Positions 27,167-45,588 of a DNA stretch of 64,000 nucleotides are shown here, in pieces. How positions within the stretch are numbered: position 1 is the first letter of the stretch; each line of letters begins with the position of its first letter. The notes under the pieces were generated by a model, which did not search any database, was not told the origin of the DNA, and saw only the letters and a list, made by a program, of their open reading frames with translations. A program made the translations under genes and the position numbers. The stretch comes from Woeseiaceae bacterium (GTDB lineage: Bacteria; Pseudomonadota; Gammaproteobacteria; Steroidobacterales; Woeseiaceae): assembly GCA_028227395.1 (NCBI GenBank), contig JAOIZZ010000003.1, positions 63,077 through 127,076 on the forward strand, given 5' to 3'.

Positions 27167-29929
27167 TTAGAAGTCGTATGAGACTCTAAAACCCATAGTA
27201 CGTGGGCGGTTAGTGGTAGCTCTTTCGAAGAAGTCTTGTCTGTTGATATGCAACTGTGCACGTTCGTCAGTTAAGTTCTTCACATAGAGCTCCATGCCCC
27301 AGTTATTATTTATATTTTTCAAGCCAACTGAAGTATCAAAAACTGTGTAAGCTTTTTGAAATACATTTGGCTCGTCAGTCGTATCAACTATTGAGTTAAG
27401 CGCTTTTCCTGCATGCTTCATACCCAATTGATAGTAGATACTTCCGTTTGCTGTTTCCCGCTCATATTTAGCTCTAATGGTATATTGTACTTCAGGAGTC
27501 AAAGGTAATTGACGACCTTCATCTTGAACTACGAGAGCAAACGCTGGATCAACACGAGTCAATTCAGTTTTATTATATGAACCAGCTGCATAGACAGTTA
27601 GATTGTCTGTGGCTGCCCATGTAAGATCGCCTTCCATTCCTTTGATTTCAGCATCACCACCATTATCAACAAGTGTAAATATTGAGATGTTTTGCGAATC
27701 GAAATGTGACACTTGAATGTCTTTCCAGTCGATCATGTAGATTGCACCATTGAAACGTAAACGACCATCAAACATAGTTGATTTCCAGCCGAACTCAGTA
27801 CTTTCCATCACATCTGATCTGAACACATAAGGTAAGCAGTATCCAGGGAAGCCAGTTGCTGCGTTTGCATCAATTGCTCCTTTAGTACCACAAGCTATCT
27901 CTGTAGCTAGGCCTGCATTTGCCTTATTATTTGCAGTTGCATCATAAACACCTAGTTTAGCCGCGCCTCGGTTGAAACCACCAGGACGATAACCCTCAGA
28001 CCATGTTGTGTACAATAAGAGATCATCACTTGGCGTATAAGACAACGTGAATTTCATCATTGTATCTTTAGTGCTAATAGGCCTAATTGCCGATGTAAAT
28101 TTAGTGGCATAATCTCGACCACCAGTGACATTAGGTCTAACGTCATTTGAAGGGTCAGCATCATCTACCAGTAATGGACGATTACCGTATCTCCATGCGC
28201 CGTATCCTGTGAAGTCATAATCTAAATCATATTTACGTGCACTCACAGCTACATTCAATTCATCGCTGAGTTGAAAATCAATCTCACCAAACACTGCTGT
28301 TTGCTTTTCTGTTCTAAGATTGTCATTTCTAAACTGCGTTGCACCATTTACAACACCTCTTGCGTTAGCAGATGCTGTACCAAATGTACCTGGCGATCTA
28401 TTGATATCGATTGGGGCAAAGCCTGCTTCGTATGGTGCCATGTAGTTAAAATTACCGATGTGTTTGATTTCGAAATCTTCGACATAAACACCACCTTGCA
28501 TGTTGACCATACCATCCCAATTTGTAGCGAATCGTATTTCATTAGTCATGCGCGTCATTTCATTTTGCAGTCCTACAGCATTTGCTGGGTTACCGCACTC
28601 GATCACGCCAGGATTACCGCTTAGCGTTGGATCATAACCATACCTTGCTACTGTATTAGCAGCTGCTACTGCTGCAGTGGTTATATTACCATCAGCATCT
28701 TTTACTTCTGCAACTGCAAGAGTTTCACCTACACCTGCACCAGTATAATAACCGGCACCGGTTAAGTATTCACAGATATAACCTGATATGGATCCACCGA
28801 TATTGGTATAGCCAGTGTAATCAAGTTGTGCATCGACTGAACGATCTAAGAAAGCACCTGTATAAACAATATCGATATCACCCATTGAACCATTTAGAGT
28901 CCAAGCAGTTGTGTTGAACGAATCATCTAATTTATCAGGTGTGAACCGCGATACTTTGAGGTCACCTTTGGCCATATCATAATCCCAAACACCTTCAGTT
29001 TTGAGAGACTGAGTAGTATTTTGGAGAAGTATATCCCAGTTTTCATTAAGTACCCATTTAAGGCCCATTCTAGCGCCTGCATAGTGTGCATCATTAAAAT
29101 CATCTTCAACGATTGAATCATTTCTTGCTGCTGTATAATTAACTGGAATTGTTGTACCTGCTGCGATTTCTGTTCCGTTAAAGAATCTGGTTGCTTTAGC
29201 GTACGTAACACCAGTTGCTTTAGGGAATGTTCCGTTAATCTTACTACTAGGCGTGAATGTTCCTGCTACATTATCAATATAACCACCTTGGTTATCATTA
29301 TAAAGAGCTACCCTGAATGCCATTTTACCTTCAATCAACGGAACATTAAGCATCATTTCAGCTGAGTTTGAATTCTCACCACCTGATGTAGATGCAAAAC
29401 CGCCATTAAAGCTTGCTTGGAATTCATCAATCACTGGTTTGTTAGTAATTAATCTAACTGTACCTGCCATTGAGCTGGCACCATATAAAGTACCTTGTGG
29501 CCCAGGAAGTACCTCAATACGTTCCATGTCAGTAACATAAACATCTAAGTTACGACCGCCTGATGTAACTGGTTGTTCATCTAAGTAGAGTGCAACGTTT
29601 GGAGCGGAACCTTGAGATTCTGCAACCGTGATATTAATCGCATCGACTGCGGCACCACGAATGTAGATTTCATTTTGTCCTGGTCCTCGTCCACCAGCAT
29701 TAACGCTTGGTAGATATTTCACATAGTCACTGAAGCTTTGAATATTTTCGTCTTCTAGTCTTTGTGCGTCCATTGCTTGCACGGCAAGTGGAATATCTTG
29801 CATGCTAGCTGACCGTTTTGTTGCAGTGACTGTAATTTCTTCTATTGCTTGAGCATGCACCGCTGAAGTAGCAGCACTTGCTGACATCGCAAGTAATACA
29901 GCTTGATGTACTTTGTTTACCTTAAGCAT
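27167..29929 (-). CDS. TonB-dependent outer-membrane receptor
   Basis: About 920 aa. Signal peptide MLKVNKVHQAVLLAMSASAATSAVHA, plug region (EEITVTATKR..., IEVLPGPQGTLYGASSMAGT) and a C-terminal beta-barrel ending in ...RVSYDF. ATG at 29929, preceded by GGGGGAA, is preferred over the TTG at 29950. Confidence 0.9.
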   Translation of the reverse strand: MLKVNKVHQAVLLAMSASAATSAVHAQAIEEITVTATKRSASMQDIPLAVQAMDAQRLEDENIQSFSDYVKYLPSVNAGGRGPGQNEIYIRGAAVDAINITVAESQGSAPNVALYLDEQPVTSGGRNLDVYVTDMERIEVLPGPQGTLYGASSMAGTVRLITNKPVIDEFQASFNGGFASTSGGENSNSAEMMLNVPLIEGKMAFRVALYNDNQGGYIDNVAGTFTPSSKINGTFPKATGVTYAKATRFFNGTEIAAGTTIPVNYTAARNDSIVEDDFNDAHYAGARMGLKWVLNENWDILLQNTTQSLKTEGVWDYDMAKGDLKVSRFTPDKLDDSFNTTAWTLNGSMGDIDIVYTGAFLDRSVDAQLDYTGYTNIGGSISGYICEYLTGAGYYTGAGVGETLAVAEVKDADGNITTAAVAAANTVARYGYDPTLSGNPGVIECGNPANAVGLQNEMTRMTNEIRFATNWDGMVNMQGGVYVEDFEIKHIGNFNYMAPYEAGFAPIDINRSPGTFGTASANARGVVNGATQFRNDNLRTEKQTAVFGEIDFQLSDELNVAVSARKYDLDYDFTGYGAWRYGNRPLLVDDADPSNDVRPNVTGGRDYATKFTSAIRPISTKDTMMKFTLSYTPSDDLLLYTTWSEGYRPGGFNRGAAKLGVYDATANNKANAGLATEIACGTKGAIDANAATGFPGYCLPYVFRSDVMESTEFGWKSTMFDGRLRFNGAIYMIDWKDIQVSHFDSQNISIFTLVDNGGDAEIKGMEGDLTWAATDNLTVYAAGSYNKTELTRVDPAFALVVQDEGRQLPLTPEVQYTIRAKYERETANGSIYYQLGMKHAGKALNSIVDTTDEPNVFQKAYTVFDTSVGLKNINNNWGMELYVKNLTDERAQLHINRQDFFERATTNRPRTMGFRVSYDF

Positions 29930-30173
29930 ATCTGGTTTCCCCCGAGGCAATTTATGTTGCCGTTTTTTTGCTTAGTTAATAAAACATTACTTGTTGTTTG
30001 TGTGACTTTTTCAAATTTTTTTTACAAAAAAATGAGTTAAATCGACACAGTAATGCATGAAATTTAAAGTAGTTGGATCAAAACTACAAGCAAATAATTA
30101 ACTTTTTACGCTTTTTTGTTATTTTTGTTGTTTTAATACAACAATAGAAAAAACTCAATATATTTGGTTTTGA

Positions 30174-31853
30174 CTAAAATAAACCCGTAATACTTTTTGA
30201 ATCGTCTACACCAATATTATCAGAAGCCGGCTTCCTCGGCAGTCCTGGCATGGTCATAACATCACCACATACTACGACAATAAATTCGGCACCAGCAGCA
30301 AGTCGAATTTCACGGATAGGAACATCATGACCACTGGGAGCTCCAGTGAGTTGCGGGTCAGTAGAAAAACTGTACTGGGTTTTTGCCATACAAACCGGAT
30401 AATGACCGTAACCCTCTGTTTCAAATTGATCAAATTGTGCTCGTACTTTTTTGTCTGCAATAATATCTTGGGCGCCATAAATGGTTCTAGCAATATGCTG
30501 AGCTTTATCCCAGAGTTTCATGTCATCGGCATACAGTGTTTTAAATTTAGATGGCTGATTGTCAATCATGTCGATTACATGAGAGGCTAATGCTTCTGCC
30601 CCTTTTCCACCATCAGACCAGTGAGAAGAAATTTTACAAGCAACGCCAAATTTTTGACAATAATCTATAATTGCTTGATGCTCATTTTTTGTGTCAGTTA
30701 CGTAATCATTTATAGCAACGGCTACTGGCACTCCAAATTCACCAATATTTCGAATGTGACGACCTAGGTTCTCACATCCAGCTATCACAGCATCGACATT
30801 CTCTTTTTGTAAGTTTGATTTTTCAACTCCACCGTGCATTTTTAAAGCTTTGGTGGTTGCAACTAGGACCACGGCACTGGGATTAAGTCCTGCTTTACGA
30901 CATTTTATATCAAAAAATTTCTCTGCCCCTAAGTCAGCGCCAAAACCTGCTTCAGTTACCACATAATCAGCCAGTTTGAGTGCTGTTTTAGTAGCCACAA
31001 CAGAGTTACAACCGTGTGCAATATTGGCAAATGGACCGCCATGCATTAAAGCAGGGTTATTTTCAAGTGTCTGAACTATATTAGGTTGAAAGGCATCTTT
31101 TAATAAAGCAGTCATTGCACCTTGTGCATTTAGTTGACTGACTTTGACCGGCTCACGTTTTCTTGTATATCCGATAACAATGTTACCGATACGATTTTGC
31201 AGATCATCAAGATCTGTTGCCAAGCAAAAGACGGCCATAACCTCAGAGGCGACTGTGATGTCAAAACCTCCTTGTCTTGGAATACCGTTACCAGGACCGC
31301 CAAGACCAGTTGTGATATCTCTTAGGGCACGATCATTCATATCGACAACTCGCTTCCAAGTAATTCTCCTTGGATCAAGGTCCAGCGTATTTTCCCAGTG
31401 GATATGATTATCAATTAAGGCAGACAAAAGGTTATGTGCCGCACCGATGGCATGAAAATCACCCGTGAAATGTAAATTGATGTCTGTCATTGGGATGACT
31501 TGAGCATAACCACCACCTGCGGCTCCCCCTTTCATTCCAAAACAAGGACCCAAGCTTGGTTCTCGTAAGCAAATCATCGCACGCTTACCTATGTGGCATA
31601 AACCATCGACTAAGCCAACGCTCGTTGTTGTTTTGCCTTCACCTGCGGGTGTGGGTGAGATTGCAGTGACTAAAATAAGATGACCGTCTTTCTTATCCTG
31701 AATTCCATCAATAAATTCGTAGGTTAATTTTGCCTTATCATTACCATATGGAATTAAACCCAATTCTTTAATGTCTAATTTCTTAGCAATGTCTGTAATG
31801 GGTTTTTTTATTGCTGCTTGAGCAATCTCTAAATCTGAAAGATAGTCTGTCAT
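30174..31853 (-). CDS. fhs: formate-tetrahydrofolate ligase
   Basis: 559 aa from the ATG at 31853 ([12 protein letters not shown]...). FTHFS P-loop [15 protein letters not shown] and a highly conserved core. The ORF-track N-terminal extension to 31952 is unlikely. Confidence 0.9.
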
Positions 31854-32077
31854 AATTTTATTACCTAGAATTACATCTTTATGTATTATTTTGATTATGG
31901 AAAAGCAGTCTAATCTGGAAACTGTTTTTTCACAAATCGTAATCCATATCATGAGGAGTTAGTTAGCTGAAAATTTTTGTCTTTTATTACGGTAATATTT
32001 ATGCAAATAATCGCTTTTTCAAGGCATTCTATGGATTTTTAATTTAATAATAATTTTATTAAAGTTTGATGGGTATA

Positions 32078-32106
32078 ATGTCGTTTAAAATCATACAAAT
32101 GTCGTT
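32078..32106 (+). promoter_or_regulatory. two direct ATGTCGTT repeats spaced 21 bp, candidate activator site in the fhs/mttB divergent promoter region
   Basis: ATGTCGTT occurs at 32078-32085 and 32099-32106. A possible sigma70 promoter lies downstream (TTGAAT 32125-32130, 17 nt spacer, AATATA 32148-32153). The same core motif recurs upstream of dmgdh. Confidence 0.35.
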
Positions 32107-32209
32107 ATTAGATAAGCAATTAGGTTGAATGTAGAAGAAAATCACGAAATATATAAAAATTTAATTATTACAAAAAATAGTTAGGCGATTAATTGAAGGG
32201 GGCGATGGG

Positions 32210-33751
32210 ATGGTTGATAGAAAACGCCGACGAAAAGGTGGCGGCAGAAGCTCAAAAGTAGCTGCTCGTCAAAATATTTCTACTGAATATCAAGCTTATA
32301 TTGAACGCAATATACCTTATTTTGAAATATTGGATGAAGAGGGCTTGGCGTTAATAGAAAATAACGCTGATATTTTATTAGAAGAAATTGGTATTGAATT
32401 TCGTGATTTCCCCGAAGCTTTAAAACTATTCAAGGATGCAGGCGCAGACATAAAAGGTGAACGAGTTCGTTTCCCACGTGGTTTTTGCCGAAGTATCATT
32501 CAGGCAAGCGCTCCATCGGAATATACTCAACACGCTCGGAATTCTGCTCGTAATGTTGTTATTGGGGGACCACGAACAGTGCTCGTCCCTGCCTATGGTT
32601 CGCCTTTCATTAGAAACTTAGATGAGGGCCGACGTTATGCGACCATTGAAGATTTTCGTAATTTTGTAAAATTAGCTTACATGAGCCCGCATCTTCATCA
32701 TTCGGGAGGAACTATTTGTGAGCCTGTTGATGTCCCCGTGAATAAGCGTCATTTCGATATGATCTACAGTCATATTAAATACAGTGATAAACCATTCATG
32801 GGATCTGTTACTCACCCAGAAAGAGCGGAAGATACAGTGGCGATGGCTAAAATTCTCTTTGGTGAGGACTTCCTTAAAGAAAATACCGTTCTAACCAGCT
32901 TAATCAATGCAAATTCACCATTAACTTTTGATGCCACAATGTTGGGTGCAGCGACAGTTTATGCCAAGAATAATCAGGCCACGATGATTTCACCTTTTAT
33001 CCTGGCAGGAGCGATGTCTCCGGTTAGTGTTGCTGGCACAGTGACGCAAATTTTAGCAGAAGCTCTAGCAGGTATAGCTTATATTCAGCTAGTTAATCCA
33101 GGTGCCCCAGTAATTTTCGGAACCTTTGCGAGTGCCGTATCTATGCAAACTGGCGCACCAACCTTTGGTACTCCTGAGCCCGGTCAGGTGATGACAATTG
33201 CAGGTGCCTTAGCTAGACGCTTAGGCGTTCCATTTCGAAGTGGTGGAGGATTATGTGCTTCTAAAATTCCAGATGCACAGGCAGCTTATGAATCTGCAAA
33301 TACTCTACAAGCGTCGGCATTAGCTGGAGTTAACTTTATGTTGCATACCGCAGGTTGGCTTGAGGGTGGTCTTTCCATGGGCTATGAAAAGTTTATTATG
33401 GATGCAGATCAAGCGGGTATGTTAGCAGTGATGCTTAAAGGAGTAGATATGTCAGTCAACGCTCAAGCATTAGATGCATTTAGAGAAATAGGACCTGGGG
33501 CCCATTTTCTCGGAGCGACACATACACAAGCTAATTTTGAATCTGCATTTTATCGTTCGGAAGTTGCTGATAACAATAGTTTTGAACAGTGGGAAGAAGA
33601 AGGCAGTATGGATTGTGCTATGCGAGCAAATAAAAAATGGAAACAAATGTTAAAAGACTATGAGGCGCCTGAATTAGATCAAGGAATTGATGAAGCATTA
33701 TTAGAATTTATTGCCAAAAGAAAATCTGAATTTGAAGACAAGGATTATTAA
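32210..33751 (+). CDS. MttB-superfamily (trimethylamine methyltransferase family) quaternary-amine:corrinoid methyltransferase, non-pyrrolysine type
   Basis: 513 aa with no in-frame TAG. Family-typical length and an Arg-rich N-terminus (MVDRKRRRKGGGRSSKVAARQ). A corrinoid protein gene follows immediately. Confidence 0.8.
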   Translation: MVDRKRRRKGGGRSSKVAARQNISTEYQAYIERNIPYFEILDEEGLALIENNADILLEEIGIEFRDFPEALKLFKDAGADIKGERVRFPRGFCRSIIQASAPSEYTQHARNSARNVVIGGPRTVLVPAYGSPFIRNLDEGRRYATIEDFRNFVKLAYMSPHLHHSGGTICEPVDVPVNKRHFDMIYSHIKYSDKPFMGSVTHPERAEDTVAMAKILFGEDFLKENTVLTSLINANSPLTFDATMLGAATVYAKNNQATMISPFILAGAMSPVSVAGTVTQILAEALAGIAYIQLVNPGAPVIFGTFASAVSMQTGAPTFGTPEPGQVMTIAGALARRLGVPFRSGGGLCASKIPDAQAAYESANTLQASALAGVNFMLHTAGWLEGGLSMGYEKFIMDADQAGMLAVMLKGVDMSVNAQALDAFREIGPGAHFLGATHTQANFESAFYRSEVADNNSFEQWEEEGSMDCAMRANKKWKQMLKDYEAPELDQGIDEALLEFIAKRKSEFEDKDY

Positions 33752-33808
33752 GTTAATCAAATAGCGAGTTCGTGAATTTTATATATTAGGTAGCAGAGAG
33801 ATTATTTT

Positions 33809-34522
33809 ATGAGTGATTCGAATGAAGTTTATGATGACGAGGATATCGTTTTAGCCGATTTGTCTGATGATGAGTTGGTCGAGCAAATGCACGATGATTT
33901 ATACGATGGTCTAAAAGAAGAGATCGAAGAAGGCACCAATATTTTGCTATCAAGAGATTGGTCGGCAGAACGAGTCCTTAACGAAGCTTTGGTTGCAGGT
34001 ATGAAAATCGTGGGTGTCGATTTTCGCGATGGTATTTTATTTGTTCCTGAGGTTTTGTTAGCAGCAAATTCAATGAAGGGTGGAATGGCTATTTTAAAAC
34101 CATTGTTAGCTGAAACGGGAGCAAAACCGATAGGCACGATGGTCATTGGTACGGTTAAAGGTGATATTCATGATATTGGAAAAAATTTAGTTGGTATGAT
34201 GTTAGAAGGAGCAGGTTTTGAGGTATTTGATATTGGAATAAATAATTCTGTAGAGGATTATTTTGCAGCTCTTGAGGAGCATAAGCCAGATATCTTGGGT
34301 ATGTCCGCACTGCTTACAACGACGATGCCATATATGAAAGTAGTTATTGATGAGATGGTTAATAAAGGCATACGCGATGACTATATTGTCCTTGTTGGCG
34401 GTGCTCCACTAAACGAAGAATTTGGAACAGCAGTTGGGGCGGATGGATATTGTAGGGATGCTGCAGAGGCCGCTGCTATATCCGTTGCCATGGTGGCTGA
34501 ACGACAAGCTTCACAAGCTTAA
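33809..34522 (+). CDS. cobalamin (corrinoid)-binding protein, MtbC/MtgC-like
   Basis: 237 aa. B12-binding motif GDIHDIGKNLV (DxHxxG), SALLTTTM, and GGAPL in a Rossmann-like C-terminal domain, with an N-terminal helical cap. Confidence 0.85.
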   Translation: MSDSNEVYDDEDIVLADLSDDELVEQMHDDLYDGLKEEIEEGTNILLSRDWSAERVLNEALVAGMKIVGVDFRDGILFVPEVLLAANSMKGGMAILKPLLAETGAKPIGTMVIGTVKGDIHDIGKNLVGMMLEGAGFEVFDIGINNSVEDYFAALEEHKPDILGMSALLTTTMPYMKVVIDEMVNKGIRDDYIVLVGGAPLNEEFGTAVGADGYCRDAAEAAAISVAMVAERQASQA

Positions 34523-34556
34523 ATACCAGCATCGTATTTAAAATTACTAGAATGGC

Positions 34557-34859
34557 ATGAAGAAAATTACTATATTTTGGCGAGACATTCCATCCCAAAT
34601 TTTGGTCCAAAAAGGAAGAAATAGACAGAAAAAAATGTTAGCTCCTCGTTTCCAGGAGGCAATCGATAGAGCAGCTATGCGTTCTGGAAAAGGCAGCAGT
34701 GATGCCTATATTAATGAGTGGCGAAGGGTAACTGAGACTATTGATTTGTGTCCAGATATTGAGACGTTGTTAATCCTTGAAATCAAGGAGCTTGAACTTA
34801 AATATTCAGATAGTGAGTTATTAAAATTAATACGAAATCATGGCGTCACAAAAACGTGA
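34557..34859 (+). CDS. small conserved protein of unknown function ('virulence factor'-domain-like, as found beside MetF in corrinoid methyltransferase clusters)
   Basis: 100 aa (MKKITIFWRDIPSQILVQKGRNRQKKMLAPRFQEAIDRAAMRSGKGSSDAYINEWRR...). The family assignment is from memory of similar small ORFs next to metF-like genes and is not verified. Confidence 0.5.
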   Translation: MKKITIFWRDIPSQILVQKGRNRQKKMLAPRFQEAIDRAAMRSGKGSSDAYINEWRRVTETIDLCPDIETLLILEIKELELKYSDSELLKLIRNHGVTKT

Positions 34860-34889
34860 GCGTCTCATTACCTAGGATGGGTCAGTAAA

Positions 34890-35756
34890 GTGGGGAATGA
34901 AATAAATACAAGCAAATCATCTAGAGAGATCAGTAAACGCATAATTGATAATTTGGAAAATGCCTACATGGAAGTTATCCCATTTCCCAATATCGAAGAT
35001 AAATTTCAAATTCTAAAACCAAATACGCGTTTAGCGGTTACTTGTTCACCGACAAAAGGTGTAGACGAAACCCTGCAACTTTGTGAGAAACTTGTGTCCC
35101 TTGGATTTAGTGTAACTCCTCATATTGCGGCGAAATGCGTGAGCAATCAAAAGCATCTTGAATCAATTATAAAGAAACTCGATTCCATGAATGTTGATAG
35201 TATCTTTATACCTGGAGGTGATCGACCTGAGCCAATGGGGGATTTTCATAATGCATATCAACTTTTAGCAGCTCTAAAAGTGTGCAATCACAATATGAGA
35301 TCAATAGGAATTGCGGCGCATCCCGAAGGGCATCCAGATATAGATGAGGCTCACTTAATGGAAGATCTTGAGAGAAAAAAAGACTTAGCAGACTATATTG
35401 TTACTCAAATGTGTTTTGATGCAAATATCTTGGGTGACTGGTTGGTTCGGATCAAACAAAATGGTATTGATCTTCCAGTTTGGGCCGGCTTACCAGGTGT
35501 GATCGAGCGTGGACGTTTACTCAGAACTTCTCTGAGGATTGGGGTGGGTGATTCACTTCGTTTTTTGCGAAAAAAATCTCAAGTCGCCGCAGAATTAATG
35601 AAATCTAGTATTTATCATCCTGACAAATTAGTGGAAAGTATTTCTGAATATGAAGATATTGAATCGACCAATCTTTCTGGTTATCACATATTTTGTTTTA
35701 ACCAAGTTGAAATGACAGAAAAATGGCGAATTGAGACCATTGCTCGAATGCAATGA
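34890..35756 (+). CDS. metF: methylenetetrahydrofolate reductase (MetF-like)
   Basis: 288 aa with a GTG start. MTHFR-like TIM-barrel pattern (VTCSPTKG...TPHIAA...IFIPGGD...GIAAHPEGHP...TQMCFD). The context is methyl-THF producing genes. Confidence 0.7.
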   Translation: MGNEINTSKSSREISKRIIDNLENAYMEVIPFPNIEDKFQILKPNTRLAVTCSPTKGVDETLQLCEKLVSLGFSVTPHIAAKCVSNQKHLESIIKKLDSMNVDSIFIPGGDRPEPMGDFHNAYQLLAALKVCNHNMRSIGIAAHPEGHPDIDEAHLMEDLERKKDLADYIVTQMCFDANILGDWLVRIKQNGIDLPVWAGLPGVIERGRLLRTSLRIGVGDSLRFLRKKSQVAAELMKSSIYHPDKLVESISEYEDIESTNLSGYHIFCFNQVEMTEKWRIETIARMQ

Positions 35757-35799
35757 AAATAATCTAATAATAAAATATAAATAATTGGTTGGAGAAAAA

Positions 35800-36699
35800 A
35801 TGACTATTACGTCAATAAGCTCGGCAACAAGAGAAGTTAGGATCGGTTTTGATCAACCATTCGTAATAATAGGTGAGAGAATTAATCCAACCGGAAGAAA
35901 GCTATTAGCGGAGGAAATGAAAGCCGATGATTTCAGTCGTGTTGAAGCAGATGCGATCGCGCAAGTAAAAGCTGGTGCACATATGCTTGATATAAATGCA
36001 GGAATTCCACTGGCTGATGAACCAGCATTACTCGCAAAAGCCATTCAGGTAGTACAAGCTGTCACCGATGTTCCCTTGTCAATTGACTCATCTATAATAG
36101 CTGCACTTGAGGCTGGTTTAGCTGTATATCAGGGCAAGGCATTAGTAAATTCAGTGACGGGAGAAGATGAGGTTCTCGAGGCTGTGCTGCCTCTGGTTGC
36201 TAAATACAACTGTGCAGTTGTTGCAATTTCAAATGATGAAACAGGAATCTCAGAAGATCCTAACGTTCGGTTTGAGGTGGCTAAAAAGATTGTTGAAAGG
36301 GCTGCGGATTATGGAATCTCTCATGAAAACATAGTGGTAGATCCATTAGTGATGCCGATTGGTGCCATAAATTCAGCAGGTCTACAAATTATGCATCTGG
36401 TTGGGCGATTAAAAAATGAATTAAAAGTTAATACTACTTGTGGGGCATCAAATGTGAGTTTTGGGCTACCAAATCGAAATGGTATAAATGCTGCATTCTT
36501 AACTATGGCGATTGCTTCTGGTATGACGTCTGCGATTACGAGCCCCCTTCATGCAGAAGTCATGCAGGCGGTCCTGGGTGCGAATGTTATGATGGGCAAT
36601 GATCCAAACTGTAGCAAATGGATCGAACAATTTCGTGCCGCAGAGTTAGGTGATAGGGGAGATGCAAGGAGTAAAAGAAAACGTAGACGAAGAGGTTAA
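35800..36699 (+). CDS. methyltetrahydrofolate:corrinoid methyltransferase (pterin-binding domain, MetH/AcsE/MtrH-like)
   Basis: About 299 aa from the ATG at 35800 (GGAG at 35791). Pterin-binding motifs IGERINPTGRK, LDINAG, LSIDSS, VNSV and NVSFGLPNR. The C-terminal tail RSKRKRRRRG is unusually basic. Confidence 0.8.
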   Translation: MTITSISSATREVRIGFDQPFVIIGERINPTGRKLLAEEMKADDFSRVEADAIAQVKAGAHMLDINAGIPLADEPALLAKAIQVVQAVTDVPLSIDSSIIAALEAGLAVYQGKALVNSVTGEDEVLEAVLPLVAKYNCAVVAISNDETGISEDPNVRFEVAKKIVERAADYGISHENIVVDPLVMPIGAINSAGLQIMHLVGRLKNELKVNTTCGASNVSFGLPNRNGINAAFLTMAIASGMTSAITSPLHAEVMQAVLGANVMMGNDPNCSKWIEQFRAAELGDRGDARSKRKRRRRG

Positions 36700-36743: not shown

Positions 36744-37859
36744 ATGACGCTTTCAACAGAACAAAATGAGATAGTAATAACGAAAGATTCGATTCGAATA
36801 GTTGATAACGGAAAAGTTAAATATGATCTCCCACATCTCTGGTTAAGAGATAATTGTCAATGCGATGAATGCAGAGTCGTAGAATCTCAAGAAAAGCGTT
36901 TCATGCTGAGTTCAATCGACTCTAAACTTATGCCAGTTAACGTTGAATATGATGGTGAGGAAATTCAACTAAGATGGCCAGATAATCATGAAACCATTAT
37001 TGATCTGAGCTTAATCAGGGAGCTTGGTAGAAAGAGAAAACCAGATTGGAAGACTTGGGGGGTAAATTTCAAACCGAGTTATTTCTCTTGGCAAGAATTT
37101 ATAACGAATGATTCTAAGGCCGTTAATGCAATCAAAGAATTTATAAGTTCGGGCGTAATTATTCTTTCAGATGCCCCACGTGAGCCCGAAACATTAGAGT
37201 TATTATCATCCCGTTTGGGTCCACTCCGAGAAACACTATTTGAACGTATTCATAATGTTTCGGTGAGTCGAGAGGTTTATAATATTGCTCATACTTCTCT
37301 GGAGCTTCCACCGCATAATGATTTTGCAAGTTATACGTGGCCGCCAAGTGTTCAGGGGCTTCATATGTTAGAAAATGAATGCGAAGGTGGAGAATCAATT
37401 GTGGTTGATGGCTGGGCCCTCTTGGAGAAATTAAGAAATGATCATCCGAAGCATTTCCAGATTCTATGTGAGTTTGGCGTCCCTTTTCGAGAATTTGATG
37501 AGAATAACGAGACCTATGCAATTGAACCTATGATAAAAATCGATAGTAATAACATTATCACTGGATTTCGATTTTCTAATCAACTCATGCAGGTTATCGA
37601 TCCAACGAGAAAAAAAGTAAAAGAATTTTATTTGGCTTATCACGAATTATGCTCTCGTGTCTTATCGACATCCTTTCGATCGGTTTTCAGATTGGAGGGG
37701 GGGCAAATATTATTGGTTGCTGCTCACAGAGTATTGCATGCCAGACAAGGCTTTGTTCCAGAAGGTAAGAGACACTTACAAGATGCATATTTTGAAATGG
37801 ATAATATTGTGAATAATATTGTTGTATTAAGGCGCAGAATGGCTAGTCATGATGGATAA
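36744..37859 (+). CDS. gamma-butyrobetaine hydroxylase-like Fe(II)/2-oxoglutarate dioxygenase (BBOX/TmpA-type)
   Basis: 371 aa. N-terminal DUF971-type Zn domain (HLWLRDNCQCDECR), TauD/TfdA-fold core with HxD (PPHNDFASY) and a distal His (AAHRVLHAR). Confidence 0.8.
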   Translation: MTLSTEQNEIVITKDSIRIVDNGKVKYDLPHLWLRDNCQCDECRVVESQEKRFMLSSIDSKLMPVNVEYDGEEIQLRWPDNHETIIDLSLIRELGRKRKPDWKTWGVNFKPSYFSWQEFITNDSKAVNAIKEFISSGVIILSDAPREPETLELLSSRLGPLRETLFERIHNVSVSREVYNIAHTSLELPPHNDFASYTWPPSVQGLHMLENECEGGESIVVDGWALLEKLRNDHPKHFQILCEFGVPFREFDENNETYAIEPMIKIDSNNIITGFRFSNQLMQVIDPTRKKVKEFYLAYHELCSRVLSTSFRSVFRLEGGQILLVAAHRVLHARQGFVPEGKRHLQDAYFEMDNIVNNIVVLRRRMASHDG

Positions 37860-38409
37860 AAAAGTTGATTTTAATGCCATGGAAGAAGGCACACGAAGTG
37901 ATTATGATTTGGTTTTCGAGCATGATGCTGAAAATGGAAGGAATTTATTAGATCGCATTCTGATTTGGTTGAAAATGATGGAAGGAGAATCACCTTATAA
38001 GATAAGTCGATTAGAGCATGTTCTTCAGACGGCAACTCGTGCCGAGAAAGATGGCGCTGACAATGAAACAATAGTCTGCGCTTTGCTTCATGATATTGGG
38101 GATGTATTGGCACCTACTAATCATTCTCAAGTTGCCGCAGCTCTATTGAGGCCGTATGTCAGCGAAAAAAATTATTGGATTGTACTGCATCATGGTTTAT
38201 TCCAGGGTTATTATTGGATGCATCATTATGATAAAGATAGAGATGCACGTGATAAATTAAAGGATCACCCTTATTATGAGGCTTGTGTGGAATTCTGTGC
38301 ACGTTGGGATCAAGTATCTTTTGATCCAAATTATGATACTTATCCATTAGAACATTTTATACCCATGTTGAAAGAGGTTTTTGCGAAGGAGCCGGCTTCA
38401 TTCGTTTGA
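37849..38409 (+). CDS. HD-domain protein, PhnZ/TmpB-like (candidate mixed-valent di-iron oxygenase)
   Basis: 186 aa, overlapping the dioxygenase gene by 11 nt. LEHVLQTATRAEKDGADNETIVCALLHDIGD...NHSQVAA...LHHGLFQGYY resembles PhnZ-type HD proteins as I remember them. Confidence 0.7.
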   Translation: MMDKKVDFNAMEEGTRSDYDLVFEHDAENGRNLLDRILIWLKMMEGESPYKISRLEHVLQTATRAEKDGADNETIVCALLHDIGDVLAPTNHSQVAAALLRPYVSEKNYWIVLHHGLFQGYYWMHHYDKDRDARDKLKDHPYYEACVEFCARWDQVSFDPNYDTYPLEHFIPMLKEVFAKEPASFV

Positions 38410-38584: not shown

Positions 38585-41041
38585 ATGAAAAATCAAGCAA
38601 AAGTGGTGGTGATAGGTGGCGGTGTTGTTGGGGTAAGTGCACTGTATCATCTCGCAAAAAAAGGTTGGGGTGAAGATGTTGTGCTTCTAGAAAAAGCAGA
38701 ATTAACTTCCGGCTCTACTTGGCATGCTGCTGGACTCTTGCCGCTTTTTAATATGAGTTACAGTGTTGGGCAAATTCATAAATATTCCGTTGATCTATAT
38801 GGAAAACTAGAAGCTGAAACCACACAGCCCGTGGGCTTTAGTAAAGTTGGAAATCTTCGTCTTGCAATGAATCAAGATAGGATGGATGAGTATTATCAAT
38901 ATGCTGCAACCGCAAAAACAATTGGTATAAATGTAGAATTTTTGACGCCTGAGCAAGTGAAAGAAATTTGGCCCATGTGCGAGACAAATGATTTGGTTGG
39001 TGCAATTTATCATCCTGATGATGGCTATATTCAACCAGCTGATTTGACGCAGGCATTTGCGAAAGGGGCCAGAGCGCTTGGCGCAATTATTTATCGCAAT
39101 ACTCCTGTCTTGGATATTGAGCAATCTTCGCAAGGTGGCTGGATTGTAAAAACAAAAAATGGGGATATCATTTGTGATCATGTGATATCTGCTACCGGAA
39201 ATTATGCACGACAAACCGGAAAGATGATTGGATTGGATATACCTGTCATGCCAGTTGAGCATCAATATATAGTCACCGAGCCTCATCCCGAACTGCAAGC
39301 AAGACGCAAATCAGGCACACCTGAAATGCCAGTTCTTAGGGAATCCGATGGATCTTGGTATTTAAGAGAAGAGAATGGCGGGTTTATTTTGGGTCCTTAT
39401 GAGAAAGGTGCCCCTTGTTGTTATGTTGATGGACCAAATCCAGATGCTGAATATGAACTTTTTCAGGAAGATATTGATCGATTGATGCCGCATATTGAAG
39501 CAGCTCTTGAGCGAGTACCGGCATTTGGAGAGGTTGGCTTCAAACAAGTTTATAACGGTGCAATCGCTTATACTCCTGACGGCAATCCCATTGTCGGACC
39601 TGCTTGGGGCGTGGATAATTTTTGGCTAAATGAAGGTCATAGTTTTGGTATTACGGCTGCAGGCGGAGCTGGTTGGCAATTAGCAGAATGGATTGTAGAT
39701 GGTGAACCAACTATTGATATGTTGGGTGTTGATCCAAGACGTTTTGGTGATTATGTGTCAAAAAAATATTTAATGGAGAAATCTGAGGAAGCGTATGCTC
39801 ATGTTTTTACGACGCACTTTCCCGATGAAGAAAGACCAGCTGGTAGACCCTTGAAAACCGCTCCCTGTTATGAAAGATTAAAGTCAATGGGTGCTGTTTT
39901 TGGTCAAAAATATGGTTGGGAGAGAGCGAATTGGTTTGCGACAGATGGAATGGCACAGAAAGATGATTGGTCATTTAGAAGATCAAAGTGGTTTAAAGCT
40001 ATAGGTAATGAAGTAAAAAATGTTACCAAAAATGTGGGTCTTTTAGATATGACTGCATTTGCAAAATGTCGAATTTCTGGCTCGGGCGCTGAAAAATTCT
40101 TAGATTATCTAGTGGCAAATCGAATTCCAAAGAAAATCGGTCAAATCGGCTTATGTCATGCACTTAATTCTCAAGGTGGAATTCATTCAGAATTCACAAT
40201 CCTCAGAGAGTCGGTAGATTCTTTTTACTTGGTCTCTGCTGGGGCCCTGCAAAGACTAGATCATGATTATATTAGAAGATTTATGCCAAGAGATAATTCT
40301 GTTCAATATCAACACTTAACTGATGCAATCGGAGTATTGGTTCTGGCCGGACCTAAATCTCGTGAATTATTAAATAAAGTATCGGACGCTGATTTTTCAA
40401 ATGAAGCATTTCGCTGGCTAACAGCAAAAAATATTGAAATTGATGGATGCCAGTTAAATGCTATGCGCGTTAATTACGTAGGTGAGCTTGGCTGGGAATT
40501 GCATCATCCAATCGAATACCAAAATCAAATATTTGATGCTTTGTTTGCTGCCGGTGATGATTTGGATCTTAAACCATTTGGGATTCGAGCGATGGACACT
40601 ATGAGATTGGAGAAATCCTATCGTATGGTTGGCACTGAATTATCTATCGAATACTCCGCTTTTGAGTCTGCTATGGATCGGTTCATATGCCTTGATAAAG
40701 GCGACTTTATTGGCCGCGATAAATTAATTGAATGGCAAGAAAGAGGTAGAGAAAATCAGCTTGTTACGCTAGAGATTGATGAGATAAAAGATGCAGATGT
40801 CTTGGGTAATAATGCACTGACATTAAATGGGGAATTAGTTGGCCGAGCCACAGGTGGTGGTTTTGGTTTTAGAGTGAATCGTTCACTTGCCTTGGCAATG
40901 GTAAAACCAAATTTTGCCGTGCTTGGTTCTGAGTTTTCTATAGATATTCTCGGTGAAAATTATCAGGCTAGAGTAATATCAGACAGTCCTTTTGATGGAA
41001 AAAATGAACGACTTCGTGATGTGAATGGCGCCAATGAATAA
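38585..41041 (+). CDS. dimethylglycine dehydrogenase-type FAD oxidoreductase with C-terminal GcvT-like folate domain
   Basis: 818 aa. FAD fold [22 protein letters not shown] domain and an aminomethyltransferase-like C-terminal half. It sits directly upstream of soxBDAG. A sarcosine dehydrogenase cannot be excluded. Confidence 0.8.
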
Positions 41042-42284
41042 ATATTCAGCATTCAGTTTATTTAAAAATGCTCTTACCAATAATAAAAATTGGCAAGTAT
41101 CTTGGCGAGACGCAACACCCAAATCTAAATATGACGCCATTATAGTTGGTGGCGGTGGGCATGGTTTAGCAACAGCATATTATTTAGCAAAAAATCATGG
41201 TATGAAGAATATTGCTGTACTTGAAAAAGGCTGGATTGGCGGTGGAAATACAGCTCGAAATACAACAATAGTAAGATCTAATTATTTATGGACCGAATCT
41301 TCATTACTTTATGAAAAGTCATTAAAATTATGGGAGGGATTGAGTCAGGATATTAATTTTAATGTCATGTTTAGTCAGCGCGGTGTTTATAATTTGGGCC
41401 ATACACTCCAAGATATGCGAGATATTGAAAGAAGGGTAAGTGCGAATCAATTAAATGGTATCGATGCAGAAGTGGTAGATGCGCAACAAATTAAACAAGC
41501 TATACCATTAATTAATACCTCAAAAAATGCTCGTTACCCCATCCTTGGTGCTTCATTACAACGGCGTGCTGGTGTAGCGAGACATGATGCAGTAGCTTGG
41601 GGTTATGCTAGAGCCGCCAGTGAACTTGGGGTTGATATTATTCAACAGTGTGAGGTAACGGGAATTCGAAAGAATGGTTCTCAAGTTATGGGTGTTGATA
41701 CCAGTCGTGGGTATATTGAGGCCAAAAAAGTAGGCGTAGTTGTTGCTGGTCATGCATCAGTTTTGGCAGATATGGCAGGCATTCGTTTACCTTTGGAAAG
41801 TCATCCACTGCAAGCATATGTTTCTGAGCCTCTAAAACCAGTATTAGATACAGTGATTATGTCCAATGCTGTGCATGGCTATATAAGTCAATCCGATAAA
41901 GGGGAATTAGTGATTGGCGCAGGAATAGATCCTTATATTGGTTATGGACAAAGAGGAAGTTTTTGCACTATTGAACATTGTATGCAAGCGATCATAGCGT
42001 TATTCCCAAATTTCAGTCGCGTAAGAATGTTACGTCAATGGGGAGGTATAGTGGATGTTTCTCCTGATGCTTGCCCGATTCTTAGTAAAACTCCTGTTGA
42101 AGGTTTGTACTTTAATTGTGGCTGGGGGACGGGTGGATTTAAAGCCACCCCAGGTTCTGGTTGGACCTTTGCACATACTATTGCAAATAATCAACCACAT
42201 GAATTAAACGCTCCATTTTCCTTAGATCGATTCTCAACAGGTGCATTGATAGACGAACATGGCGCTGCTGCAGTAGCTCATTAA
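41034..42284 (+). CDS. soxB: sarcosine oxidase beta subunit (copy 2)
   Basis: [20 protein letters not shown], collinear with copy 1. ATG at 41034 gives an N-terminal length matching copy 1; ATG at 41025 is also possible. Confidence 0.9.
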
Positions 42285-42298
42285 ATAGGTAAAAGAAG

Positions 42299-42586
42299 AT
42301 GTTATTAATTAAATGCCCTTGGTGTGGCGTAAGAGATGAAACAGAATTTTCATATGGAGGTGAGGCAGGTATTGAGCGCCCTTTAAAACCGGAAGATTTA
42401 AATGATCAAGAATGGGCAGATTATCTCTTTATGCGAAAAAATACTCGCGGCCTATTTCTTGAGCAATGGAATCATAGTCTAGGTTGTCGTCAGTGGTTTA
42501 TCGTTGAGCGAAATACTGTGACTTATGAAATTATTGCTACCTCAAAAATTAAGAATGAAGCACCAGATATTCAAGTGGACGCATAA
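42299..42586 (+). CDS. soxD: sarcosine oxidase delta subunit (copy 2)
   Basis: 95 aa. MLLIKCPWCGVRDETEFSYGGE... is the Cys-containing, Zn-type N-terminus typical of SoxD. The stop shares one nt with the soxA start. Confidence 0.9.
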   Translation: MLLIKCPWCGVRDETEFSYGGEAGIERPLKPEDLNDQEWADYLFMRKNTRGLFLEQWNHSLGCRQWFIVERNTVTYEIIATSKIKNEAPDIQVDA

Positions 42587-45500
42587 TGCAAATTAATCGA
42601 CTTAAGTCTGGTGGGCAAATTAATCGTGATAAAACATTGCGATTTACTTTCAATGGTCAAAGTTATAAAGGTTATTTAGGCGACACATTGGCTTCTGCAT
42701 TACTTGCAAATGGTGTAGATATTGTTGGGCGAAGTTTTAAGTATCATCGTCCGAGAGGAATAGTTGGGAGCGGTGCCGAAGAGCCAAACGCTATCTTTCA
42801 AATTGGAAGTGGAGCCACCACCGAAGCTGGAATGCGAGCCACGCAAGTTGAGTTATATGATGGCTTAGTAGCTAAAAGCGAAAAAGGTTGGCCAAGTCTA
42901 TCTTTTGATATTGCTGAAGTTAATGATTGGTGTAGTAAGTTATTTGGTGCTGGATTTTATTACAAAACGTTTATGTATCCCGCCAAGTTTTGGAAAATAT
43001 ATGAATATTTTTTACGTAGAATGGCAGGCTTAGGTGCAGCCCCAAGAGAGCCAGATCCAGATTATTATAATCATCAAAATACTCATTGTGATGTTCTTGT
43101 GGTTGGTGCTGGACCCGCTGGATTGATGGCAGCTTTATCGGCTGGTAAATCTGGTGCTAAAGTTATTATTGCTGATGATCAAGCTAATTTTGGTGGCTCC
43201 CTATTGGCTTCGAAAGAGCTCATAGAGGGTCTAACTGCCGACAAATGGGTCTCTTCTCAACTTCAGATGTTAGAGGAATTACCTAATGTAACCTGCTTAT
43301 CTAGAAGTACAGTATTCGGTTATTATGATTATAATTTTTTAACGATTAACGAGCGGTGCACTAATCATCTGAGTGAGTTCACAGAGGGCCATGTCCGACA
43401 AAAATTATGGCGTGTGCGAGCTAAGCGAGTAGTTTTAGCTCAAGGCGCTTTTGAGCGCCCATTAGTATTTCCAAATAATGATCGACCGGGTGTTATGTTG
43501 GCGTCTGCAGTATCAAATTATATAAATCGTTATGGCGTGCTCCCAGGAAAAAATCCAATTCTGTTTACTAATAATGATTCTGCTTATCAAGCCGCCATTG
43601 ATATGAAAATTGCAGGTGCAAAATCTGTACTTGTGGTTGATAGTCGGTCCGAGCAACCCTCTGATATGGTCGATGAAGCAAGAAATAATGGTATTGAATT
43701 ACAATTTGATGCGGTTATTAGAAATGTTATTGGCCATACAAAAGTGAAGGGCGTCGAGATTTCAACCTATGATTCTGGAAGTAATACTTGTGCAGCCCAA
43801 GCAACAAAAAGAACTTGTGACTTATTGATTTATTCAGGTGGATGGAGTCCTGCAGTTCATCTTCACTCCCAGTCCGGTGGAATAAATAAATGGGATGATA
43901 ATCGCCACTGTTTTGTTCCGCATACGACTAAACAAGCATCCTTTTCGATTGGTTCATGCAATGGGACATGGAGTCTTGAAGATTGTCTTAAAGAAGGGAT
44001 TGCATGCGGTCGTGATGTTGCTGGTAGTTTAAATTTAAAAGTGAATGATATTAACTTACCAATTACAAAGAAAATTAAATTAAATCCGATGATGCCTTTA
44101 TGGCAAGTAATAGCAGAAAATTCGGTGGAGAACCTTCCAAAACAATTTTTGGATTATCAGAACGATACAACTGTTTCTGATATATATCTTGCTGTTAGGG
44201 AAGGGTATACGGGTATTGAGCATGTAAAACGATATACTGCTCTTGGCTTTGGCACAGATCAGGGAAAATTAGGTAATATCAATGGCATGGCTATATTGGC
44301 TATAGCTCTTGGGAAGCCAATTGCAGAGATTGGTACAACAACATTTAGACCGGCTTATACTCCTGTGAGTTTTGGTGTCTGTGCTGGTGAAGATATTGGA
44401 GAAATGTTTGAACCAACTAGAAAAACGGCTATTCATGATTTTCACACCGAAAGTAAAGCTCCTTTTGAAATTGTAGGTCAATGGCTACGTCCATGGTATT
44501 TCCCTAAAGACGACGAAGATATGTCCAGTGCTGTCATCCGTGAGTGCTTAGCAACCAGATCATCGCTTGGAATAATGGATGCCTCCACGTTAGGAAAGAT
44601 TGATGTTTGTGGAAAAGATGCGGTTACTTTTTTAGAAAAAATTTACACACATGATGTCGCAAAGATGGCTGTTGGACAATGTGCATATGGGGTAATGCTC
44701 GGCGAAGATGGCATGATTAAGGATGATGGGGTTATGGCTCGTTTAGGTGAAAATCATTTTTACTTAACCACCACAACTGGCGGTGCAGCGACTGTAATGA
44801 GTTGGCTTGAACAATGGTTGCAAACTGAATGGCCACATTTGACTGTTTATCTAACTTCTTTGACCGATCAATTATCTACGATCGCACTAGTTGGACCAAA
44901 TAGTCGTCGCGTATTGCAAAAGTTAGTGGATGCTGATTTGAGCAATGATAATTTTCCATTTATGAAGACTTGTAAAAGTGAAATAGCAGGTCTCAAGGTG
45001 GATTTATTCCGAGTTAGCTTTAGTGGTGAACTTGCTTTTGAGATAAATGTTAATAGCAATTTTGCACTGTATATATGGAATCTTTTGATGGTAACTGGAA
45101 GAGATTTTGAAATTACTCCTTACGGTACCGAGACTATGCATGTTTTAAGGGCTGAAAAAGGTTTTATCATTGTTGGTCAAGACACGGATGGTTCTATAAA
45201 TCCTCATGATGCAGGATTGGGGTGGTTGGTCTCAAAAGAAAAAGATTTTATAGGTAAGCGCTCCCTTGAAAGAGTTGATTCTATTCGAAGTGATAGGAAG
45301 CAGTTAGTTGGGTTACTCTCAGTGGACAATAAAAGTGTGATACCTGAAGGAGCACAGTTAATTGAAAAAAAATCTCCCTCAGGGCCAACACCAATGTATG
45401 GCCATGTTAGCTCCAGTTATTTCAGTCCTGTTTTAGGACATCCAATCGCTCTAGCATTAATTGAATCAGGTAGAAATAGAATTGGCGATAAATTATTAGC

Positions 45501-45588
45501 AATCTCTTCCGATGCAAAAGCAATAGAAGTAACTATTGCAAAACCGATATTTTATGATCCAAAGGGGGAGCGACAGCATGCCAAATGA
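42586..45588 (+). CDS. soxA: sarcosine oxidase alpha subunit (copy 2)
   Basis: 1000 aa. FTFNGQSYKGYLGDTLASALLANG...GRSFKYHRPRG, VLVVGAGPAGL, a GcvT-like C-terminal domain and the C-terminus FYDPKGERQHAK. Confidence 0.9.
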   Translation: MQINRLKSGGQINRDKTLRFTFNGQSYKGYLGDTLASALLANGVDIVGRSFKYHRPRGIVGSGAEEPNAIFQIGSGATTEAGMRATQVELYDGLVAKSEKGWPSLSFDIAEVNDWCSKLFGAGFYYKTFMYPAKFWKIYEYFLRRMAGLGAAPREPDPDYYNHQNTHCDVLVVGAGPAGLMAALSAGKSGAKVIIADDQANFGGSLLASKELIEGLTADKWVSSQLQMLEELPNVTCLSRSTVFGYYDYNFLTINERCTNHLSEFTEGHVRQKLWRVRAKRVVLAQGAFERPLVFPNNDRPGVMLASAVSNYINRYGVLPGKNPILFTNNDSAYQAAIDMKIAGAKSVLVVDSRSEQPSDMVDEARNNGIELQFDAVIRNVIGHTKVKGVEISTYDSGSNTCAAQATKRTCDLLIYSGGWSPAVHLHSQSGGINKWDDNRHCFVPHTTKQASFSIGSCNGTWSLEDCLKEGIACGRDVAGSLNLKVNDINLPITKKIKLNPMMPLWQVIAENSVENLPKQFLDYQNDTTVSDIYLAVREGYTGIEHVKRYTALGFGTDQGKLGNINGMAILAIALGKPIAEIGTTTFRPAYTPVSFGVCAGEDIGEMFEPTRKTAIHDFHTESKAPFEIVGQWLRPWYFPKDDEDMSSAVIRECLATRSSLGIMDASTLGKIDVCGKDAVTFLEKIYTHDVAKMAVGQCAYGVMLGEDGMIKDDGVMARLGENHFYLTTTTGGAATVMSWLEQWLQTEWPHLTVYLTSLTDQLSTIALVGPNSRRVLQKLVDADLSNDNFPFMKTCKSEIAGLKVDLFRVSFSGELAFEINVNSNFALYIWNLLMVTGRDFEITPYGTETMHVLRAEKGFIIVGQDTDGSINPHDAGLGWLVSKEKDFIGKRSLERVDSIRSDRKQLVGLLSVDNKSVIPEGAQLIEKKSPSGPTPMYGHVSSSYFSPVLGHPIALALIESGRNRIGDKLLAISSDAKAIEVTIAKPIFYDPKGERQHAK

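Follow-up and report, generated by a model that had tools for sequence, protein, structure and literature searches.

A probable MtgBCD-type, cobalamin-dependent glycine betaine demethylation operon in an aerobic, genome-streamlined marine gammaproteobacterium

Described systems and the Woeseiaceae gene array

Cobalamin-dependent demethylation of glycine betaine (GBT) in aerobic marine bacteria was described by Mausz et al. 2025 (PNAS, PMC12478193), who found MtgC and MtgD to be essential in Ruegeria pomeroyi both for growth on GBT and for methionine synthesis, while the MtgB candidates, MetF2, a RamA-like protein and a DUF1638 protein were all induced on N-osmolytes. The same study located mtgBCD in pelagic members of the Alpha-, Gamma- (SUP05) and Deltaproteobacteria (SAR324), often beside dimethylglycine (DMG) and sarcosine genes and mostly in genomes without MetH, and reported high oceanic expression of these genes. 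In Phaeobacter inhibens grown aerobically, B12 reactivation was assigned to ferredoxin plus a DUF4445 (RamA-like) protein (Price et al. 2018, PMC5764234), and DUF1638 has been genetically linked to the same process. Here, we analyse a 64-kb stretch of contig C23 of a Woeseiaceae assembly (the window), in which a gene for an MttB-family methyltransferase heads a long same-strand array. A preliminary description of positions 30174-36699 had treated the locus as a puzzle, on the grounds that characterised MttB systems of this kind were found only in anaerobes, a statement overtaken by the 2025 study. We conclude, with a probability of roughly 0.8, that the operon serves cobalamin-dependent GBT demethylation of the MtgBCD type and belongs to an aerobic marine gammaproteobacterium with a streamlined genome. 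The aerobic marine MtgBCD system is already known; what is new here is a somewhat reduced member of it.

In common with the MtgBCD(E) system of R. pomeroyi DSS-3, the genome encodes an MtgB, an MtgC, a pterin-binding MtgD, an adjacent MetF paralogue and a RamA/RACo-like activase in an aerobic host without MetH, and the DMG and sarcosine genes are co-located, as PMC12478193 reports for marine Gamma- and Deltaproteobacteria. Among the components by which an aerobic MtgBCD system may be recognised, MtgB, MtgC, MtgD and a RamA/RACo activase were thus found, while DUF1638 was not; the locus further differs from that of R. pomeroyi in forming one co-directional array and in the truncation of its MtgE-type gene. 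The equivalents of MtgB, MtgC and MtgD are each present in single copy.

Genes were checked by an open reading frame (ORF) listing in combination with Pfam and NCBIfam scans, and all six ORFs of the preliminary description were recovered with the coordinates, order and families given there. The first gene of the array (32210..33751, plus strand) encodes an MtgB-like protein of 513 amino acids (aa) that matches PF06253 at full length (756 bits, positions 2-499 of 500); as its frame contains no in-frame stop (UAG or other), it is a non-pyrrolysine (non-Pyl) MttB homologue, as had been proposed, and it is the sole MttB gene in the genome. It is followed on the same strand by genes for an MtgC-like corrinoid protein (33809..34522), a 100-aa protein of family PF13769, labelled 'Virulence_fact' (34557..34859; 63.7 bits), a 288-aa MTHFR-like flavoprotein (34890..35756; a weak PF02219 match of 43.7 bits) and an MtgD-like methyl-tetrahydrofolate:corrinoid methyltransferase of the pterin-binding MeTr type (35785..36699; NF005719, 364 bits against a cut-off of 259), with intergenic gaps of 28-57 bp from mttB to MeTr. 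The corrinoid protein combines B12-binding_2 (PF02607) and B12-binding (PF02310) domains with a DxHxxG motif in the form DIHDIG (residues 119-124), and thereby has the features of a cobalamin-binding protein. The gene fhs for formate-tetrahydrofolate ligase (30174..31952, minus strand; PF01268 880 bits; NF010030 900 bits, above cut-off) is divergent from the array, and fhs adjoins the cluster in 11 related loci as well.

The same-strand array extends beyond position 36699, where the preliminary description ended, through a dioxygenase and an HD-domain gene to a DMG dehydrogenase-like protein (DMGDH; 38585..41041, plus strand; DAO, FAO_M and GCV_T domains), the heterotetrameric sarcosine oxidase genes soxBDAG (41025..46171) and a GbdR-like regulator with a DJ-1/PfpI domain and an AraC helix-turn-helix (46218..47192, plus strand). 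Within the sox block, all on the plus strand, soxB occupies 41025-42284 (TIGR01373, 721 bits, above cut-off), soxD 42299-42586, soxA 42586-45588 and soxG 45536-46171, the last three identified by their SoxD, SoxA and SoxG domains, respectively. Convergent with the array lies a gene for a BCCT betaine/carnitine/choline transporter (47206..48735, minus strand; PF02028, 562 bits). A promoter and terminator scan gave no excess of sites over shuffled sequence, and is thus uninformative on the boundaries of the operon.

Based on homology and gene context, the pathway would proceed as follows. GBT would enter the cell, probably via the BCCT transporter, and the MtgB-like protein would transfer one N-methyl group to the Co(I) of the MtgC-like protein, leaving DMG. 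The MtgD-like methyltransferase would pass this methyl group to tetrahydrofolate (THF), and the adjacent MTHFR-like flavoprotein would oxidise the resulting methyl-THF (CH3-THF) to methylene-THF (CH2-THF). The DMGDH-like protein and SoxBDAG would release the two remaining methyl groups as CH2-THF, with glycine as the end product, and the one-carbon units would leave through the THF pathway, with Fhs yielding formate and ATP. Corrinoid oxidised to Co(II) would be re-reduced by a RACo-type activase ([2Fe-2S] domain plus ASKHA ATPase) encoded on contig C16, unlinked to the operon in this genus, while cobalamin would be imported through a riboswitch-controlled BtuB together with BtuF.

The assembly amounts to 1.62 Mb in 50 contigs, is 84.6% complete and has a GC content of approximately 37%; genomes of the genus range from 1.1 to 2.0 Mb, against approximately 4 Mb in other members of the family. 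The genome encodes a haem-copper oxidase subunit I (COX1), and the array itself contains O2-dependent enzymes (the dioxygenase, the HD oxygenase and sarcosine oxidase), from which gene content the host is predicted to be aerobic, in agreement with the setting proposed in the preliminary description. The closest relatives of the MttB homologue (85-86% identity) are encoded in single-cell and metagenome genomes of uncultured marine Gammaproteobacteria, followed by those of Woeseiaceae, Halieaceae, Porticoccaceae and Steroidobacteraceae and then of some Beta- and Alphaproteobacteria and SAR324 at 68-79% identity. More than 585 matching stretches were obtained, indicating that the MttB orthologue is common in aerobic proteobacteria. 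The cluster of a SAR324 metagenome-assembled genome (MAG) is 70-78% identical to that of the window, and PMC12478193 reports mtgC in SAR324; Woeseia, Halieaceae and Porticoccaceae do not appear under these names in the supplement of that study.

Seawater RNA libraries were searched for the locus. In six rRNA-depleted metatranscriptome runs belonging to three studies, 43-64% of the words sampled from 32210-36699 are present, and contigs from four runs cover fhs through soxG at 95-100% identity, while the gbdR bin (46306-46936) is uncovered by contigs in all four. One RNA contig of 1449 bases spans the end of mttB, the corrinoid protein gene, the PF13769 gene and the start of the MTHFR gene with three differences. 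These contigs are consistent with expression in seawater. As a separate observation, a joint 32396->38711 that skips 6314 bases occurs in three RNA runs, with only 21 matching letters on one side (32376-32396; 38711-38733) and loose ends on both; it probably reflects another organism or a relative whose genes are ordered differently, or else a short word common to both.

Substrate of the MttB homologue

The substrate was assessed by sequence, using bit scores against PDB entries and the published GBT motif. The MttB homologue scores 751 bits against 4yyc, 443 and 441 bits against Desulfitobacterium hafniense MtgB (2qne and 9yce, respectively) and 123 bits against the Pyl-MttB 7xcl, and is thus far nearer to the characterised MtgB than to MttB. 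The D. hafniense Y51 system (MtgB/MtgC/MtgA; 2qne, 9yce; PMC13080624) shares the superfamily and the chemistry in which a methyl group passes from GBT to Co(I) and on to THF. It differs in its anaerobic host, in one residue of the betaine site and in the activase, for which the present genome has a RACo-type protein with a 2Fe-2S domain. Furthermore, the THF methyltransferase of the present locus is of the MetH/MeTr type, while MtgA is reportedly without sequence identity to known structures. The closest solved relative, 4yyc, is annotated as a 'putative trimethylamine methyltransferase', aligns at full length and shares the HxAGWLEGG segment; neither a function nor a publication was found for it. 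It presumably derives from Sinorhizobium (meliloti).

The betaine site of MtgB comprises Y97, F356, R312 and H348 (Picking et al. 2026, PMC13080624), and was mapped through the 9yce alignment, in which the chain numbering equals the native numbering minus 2, consistently for all four residues. Y97, R312 and H348 align to Y129, R343 and H379, and these three residues, together with W383, are invariant in 81 orthologues. F356 aligns to Gly387; the invariant Trp383 lies four residues upstream of this position and may, as judged from the alignment, supply the second aromatic face in place of F356.

The assignment depends chiefly on gene context. In the 80 related loci on which the context counts rest, the usual order is mttB, the corrinoid protein gene, the PF13769 gene, MetV plus MetF (in most), MeTr and RACo, and a DMG dehydrogenase, soxBDAG and a GbdR-like gene usually lie beside the cluster (dmgdh in 30 loci, soxB in 24, GbdR-like homologues in 22). 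DMGDH-like orthologues with 73-81% identity adjoin the cluster in many loci, and in L008, L010 and L014 the mttB cluster is followed by dmgdh/sox directly or after only the HD gene. The substrate of the MttB homologue is likely to be GBT on account of this context, namely a single MttB gene, enzymes for DMG and sarcosine next in the array, a GbdR-like regulator, an adjacent BCCT transporter and the recurring linkage. As a side observation, the four loci with MttB proteins 85-86% identical to that of the window (L002-L005) are ordered BCCT, DMGDH-like, mttB, corrinoid protein gene and a short MTHFR-like gene; their DMGDH-like protein is only 26-27% identical to that of the window, and PF13769, MeTr and RACo were not found within their 10-kb flanks. 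Hence, the cluster is rearranged even among near relatives.

The best-surviving alternative is that the MttB enzyme acts on another quaternary amine (proline betaine, carnitine, gamma-butyrobetaine, a choline derivative or the product of the TauD/HD pair), with the DMG and sarcosine genes serving a separate input. It draws on the Gly at the F356 position in this clade, on the up to seven MttB paralogues of related genomes, which point to diverse substrates (PMC12478193), on the different physiological substrates of MtcB and MtyB despite their 53% identity, and on the presence inside the operon of a TauD/HD pair to which no substrate is assigned. Nevertheless, we consider it improbable, as a single MttB gene here heads an array whose next catabolic enzymes take DMG and sarcosine, as the orthologue adjoins dmgdh and sox in many lineages, as the Tyr, Arg and His of the motif are invariant, and as the array is accompanied by a GbdR-like regulator and a BCCT transporter.

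The TauD/HD pair itself consists of a TauD/GBBH-like 2-oxoglutarate dioxygenase (36744..37859, plus strand; TauD and GBBH-like_N domains) and an HD-domain oxygenase-like protein of the PhnZ/TmpB type (37849..38409, plus strand; HD domain 28 bits), whose gene overlaps that of the dioxygenase by 11 nt. The dioxygenase scores 215 bits against TmpA and 226 bits against gamma-butyrobetaine dioxygenase and the HD protein 46.7 bits against Phn-HD, in each case below the cut-off, so that the pair falls under the cut-offs of TmpA/TmpB, PhnZ and gamma-butyrobetaine dioxygenase. The clusters of L007, L008, L010, L024 and L059 contain homologues of the HD gene (64-68% identity), in some cases (L007, L008 and L010) without a detectable dioxygenase partner. 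The dioxygenase may supply the betaine pool with a precursor.

Several points weigh against the proposal of a GBT demethylation operon. The position equivalent to F356 is Gly in 80 of the 81 orthologues, so that the GBT tetrad is complete for only three of its four residues. Moreover, we know of no biochemical test of any member of the proteobacterial MtgB-like clade. In R. pomeroyi, MtgB was assigned by proteomics, the knock-outs being those of mtgC and mtgD (PMC12478193), and MtcB and MtyB, which are 53% identical and differ in physiological substrate, illustrate that similarity to MtgB is by itself insufficient to define a substrate. Additionally, neither FolD (PF02882) nor DUF1638, which in the described system is the second protein linked to reactivation, was found in the 85%-complete assembly, and carried-over DNA is a further possible source of the RNA contigs.

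One-carbon handling, methionine and corrinoid reactivation

The MeTr protein scores 152 bits against 4o0q, 137 bits against the folate domain of MetH and 136 bits against MeTr. For the MTHFR-like protein, the best solved relative is S6MTHFR of Sphingobium lignivorans SYK-6 (7xg9; 99.6 bits), ordinary MTHFRs scoring 37 bits or less. S6MTHFR belongs to type 4 and acts after THF-dependent demethylases, the corrinoid-dependent CmuAB among them, by oxidising CH3-THF (PMC11868366); it shares with the present protein its length and the pairing of a demethylase with an oxidising MTHFR. The two differ in their signature residues: L48-P49, R78 and P268 of S6MTHFR align to S53-P54, C83 and F270, with only one Pro retained, and the MTHFR-like protein is therefore not filed as type 4. 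Its gene lies directly upstream of mtgD, the arrangement of a MetF paralogue beside mtgD, and the protein is inferred to oxidise CH3-THF, given its position and the precedent of MetF2, for which the same role has been proposed. Most related clusters differ from this arrangement in carrying a MetV plus MetF pair in place of the short MTHFR-like protein; MetV was not found in this genome, and a second MTHFR is encoded on contig C47. The preliminary description had read the locus as a complete route from substrate to formate. The part leading from the substrate methyl group via the methylated cobalt and CH3-THF to CH2-THF stands, as does the divergent fhs; however, FolD was not found, which leaves the conversion of CH2-THF to formyl-THF without an assigned gene despite the adjacent fhs.

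Neither MetE nor MetH was found in this genome, and a match of MetH length is present in none of the ten genomes of the genus, whereas one occurs in most of the larger relatives searched from the family and order (1068-1416 aa); a genus without MetH is consistent with the idea of Mausz et al. that MtgCDE permitted the loss of MetH. Genus mates carry a Bhmt/MtgE-type gene encoding approximately 350 aa directly after metF (L098, L099). Relative to genus mate G205 (L098), the present genome has a 1.23-kb deletion at C12:117961-118640 (L087:4923-5640), which leaves the initial ~52 codons of metF in fusion with the final ~183 (from about codon 170) of the Bhmt/MtgE-type gene (PRK07534-type), while a separate homocysteine S-methyltransferase of 301 aa is intact on contig C45. 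The module may be purely catabolic here, unless the MAG has sampled a strain variant that carries the deletion. With the MtgE-type gene cut and neither MetH nor MetE found, the genome is possibly that of a methionine auxotroph, if it does not merely represent such a deletion variant.

These findings bear on a second alternative, namely that the main function of the corrinoid protein and MeTr is that of a split methionine synthase (MtgC/D/E, on the pattern of P. inhibens and R. pomeroyi), with demethylation of betaine as a secondary one. The failure to detect MetH and MetE (and MetH throughout the genus, as opposed to most larger relatives searched), the requirement for the published MtgC and MtgD in both functions (PMC12478193) and the homocysteine S-methyltransferase on contig C45 would accord with such a role. 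Conversely, the MtgE/Bhmt-type gene is cut by the deletion, mtgC and mtgD run in the same direction as catabolic genes that come under a GbdR-like regulator, and the closest solved relative of the adjacent MTHFR-like protein oxidises CH3-THF. We regard a mainly biosynthetic role as very unlikely, and the two functions are not mutually exclusive.

As regards the reductive reactivation of the corrinoid protein, the preliminary description had noted the lack of an activase. This is correct for the window, in which tblastn identified no RACo/RamA homologue, and incorrect for the genome: a genome-wide search with the RACo ASKHA domain identified a single gene, at C16:92-2113, encoding 673 aa. The protein has all RACo domains (Fer2 31.5 bits, linker 100.5, middle 162.8 and C-terminal ASKHA 304), scores 332 bits against the solved RACo 3zyy over residues 9-639, and contains Cys44, Cys50, Cys53 and Cys98 spaced as in plant-type 2Fe-2S ferredoxins; the domains and the four Cys residues expected of a RACo/RamA (COG3894) activase are thus all present. 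The RACo of Carboxydothermus hydrogenoformans (3zyy, 4c1n) has the same succession of [2Fe-2S] ferredoxin, linker, middle and ASKHA ATPase domains; it acts on the CoFeSP of the Wood-Ljungdahl pathway and has an anaerobic host, whereas the present protein belongs to an aerobe and its target is presumably MtgC. RACo lies inside the cluster in 45 related loci, mostly directly after MeTr, and these in-cluster proteins are 54-63% identical to that on C16 (51% in one locus).

Co-occurrence was assessed in 21 relatives, ten of which constitute the genus, and in 201 genomes of the class, one per family. MttB and RACo occur in the identical 14 of the 21 relatives, including all ten of the genus, and all 12 MttB-positive genomes of the class sample possess RACo; RACo also occurs in a few class genomes without MttB, as does DUF1638. 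The RACo and MttB genes are on different contigs in every genome of the genus, so that their separation is a feature of the lineage and not an accident of assembly. With a canonical RACo on C16, the puzzle of the missing activase disappears at the level of the genome, and an aerobic corrinoid demethylase that dispenses with RamA/RACo in favour of some other reactivation mechanism, as might be imagined from the lack of an activase in the window and of DUF1638 in the genome, is scarcely credible in view of a full-length RACo in all ten genomes of the genus and in every MttB-positive genome sampled, within the cluster in most relatives. The substrate and the reactivation mechanism have consequently largely ceased to be the open questions they had appeared to be, given this RACo, the far greater proximity of the MttB homologue to MtgB and the DMG/sarcosine context; with an activase identified and the MtgB clade the probable one, the locus is an ordinary MtgB system, an outcome for which the preliminary description had itself allowed.

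DUF1638 was likewise not found in seven of nine genus mates, including a 99%-complete genome with MttB and RACo, and is present in the other two; elsewhere it adjoins the corrinoid protein gene, and wherever it occurs together with the PF13769 gene in the class sample, it lies directly upstream of the latter. It therefore appears to be dispensable in this genus.

As the preliminary description had suggested, the genome was also searched for B12 genes. One cobalamin riboswitch (84 bits) precedes a BtuB-type receptor gene, which is followed by a PduO-type adenosyltransferase, with BtuF beside them, while CbiC and CobS were not found in the genome. On this gene content, cobalamin is predicted to be imported and not made, resembling the uptake rather than synthesis of B12 in streamlined roseobacters. 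The corrinoid protein of the operon is the only PF02310 protein detected in the recovered genome (85% complete).

Other conserved genes and implications

The PF13769 gene has homologues in 44 related loci, and PF13769 and MttB occur in exactly the same 12 of the 201 class genomes. The family goes unmentioned in the main text of Mausz et al., and no paper mentioning it was found. An AlphaFold2 model built from a 43-sequence alignment (pLDDT 92.7) has the topology beta3-alpha2-beta-alpha2; the invariant residues include W8, R9, D10, P12, R21, F32, D37, Y51, W55 and R57, and the protein has no cysteine motif. Comparison of the modelled fold with the PDB gave no significant solved relative (Foldseek best E 0.28; VIA-align wide best Z 3.7), and a phmmer search against the PDB returned nothing. 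The predicted complex of MtgB, MtgC and PF13769 scored 0.00, which constitutes evidence neither way. The possibility that PF13769 replaces DUF1638 was considered and dropped, since the two are adjacent in most other families. Separately, the Bacillus subtilis control genome matches PF13769 despite having neither MttB nor RACo.

We tentatively suggest that PF13769 is an obligatory partner, with a fold that has no solved relative, in the MttB-dependent methyl transfer of aerobic proteobacteria, which would track MttB rather than the activase or DUF1638 and for which the label 'virulence factor' would be a misnomer. According to the same suggestion, the system of this genus would be pared to MtgB, MtgC, PF13769, the MTHFR-like protein, MtgD and an unlinked RACo, without DUF1638 or MetV (and, in this genome, without an intact MtgE), and the only B12-binding-domain protein of the cell would then serve betaine catabolism alone. 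This combination of claims is possible, though we would hesitate to favour it.

Upstream of the array, beyond fhs, lies a gene for a TonB-dependent receptor of 927 aa (27167..29950, minus strand; Plug domain 62 bits). Homologues of this receptor with 33-36% identity were observed upstream of mttB in L002, L003, L005, L008, L009, L018, L024 and L027, and the receptor may be a conserved outer-membrane uptake partner of the betaine cluster.

As regards its wider meaning, the locus confirms B12-dependent aerobic demethylation of GBT in another abundant marine lineage, provided that the proposed reading is correct, and the route ties osmolyte turnover to the B12 economy of the ocean. The points that are new are modest: PF13769 as a constant partner of MttB, a variant betaine motif in the proteobacterial clade and a DUF1638 that is apparently dispensable in one genus. 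For the organism itself, the MetH/mutase-type B12-binding domain of the corrinoid protein being the sole one in the recovered genome, the riboswitch-controlled uptake of cobalamin through BtuB may serve largely this one pathway.

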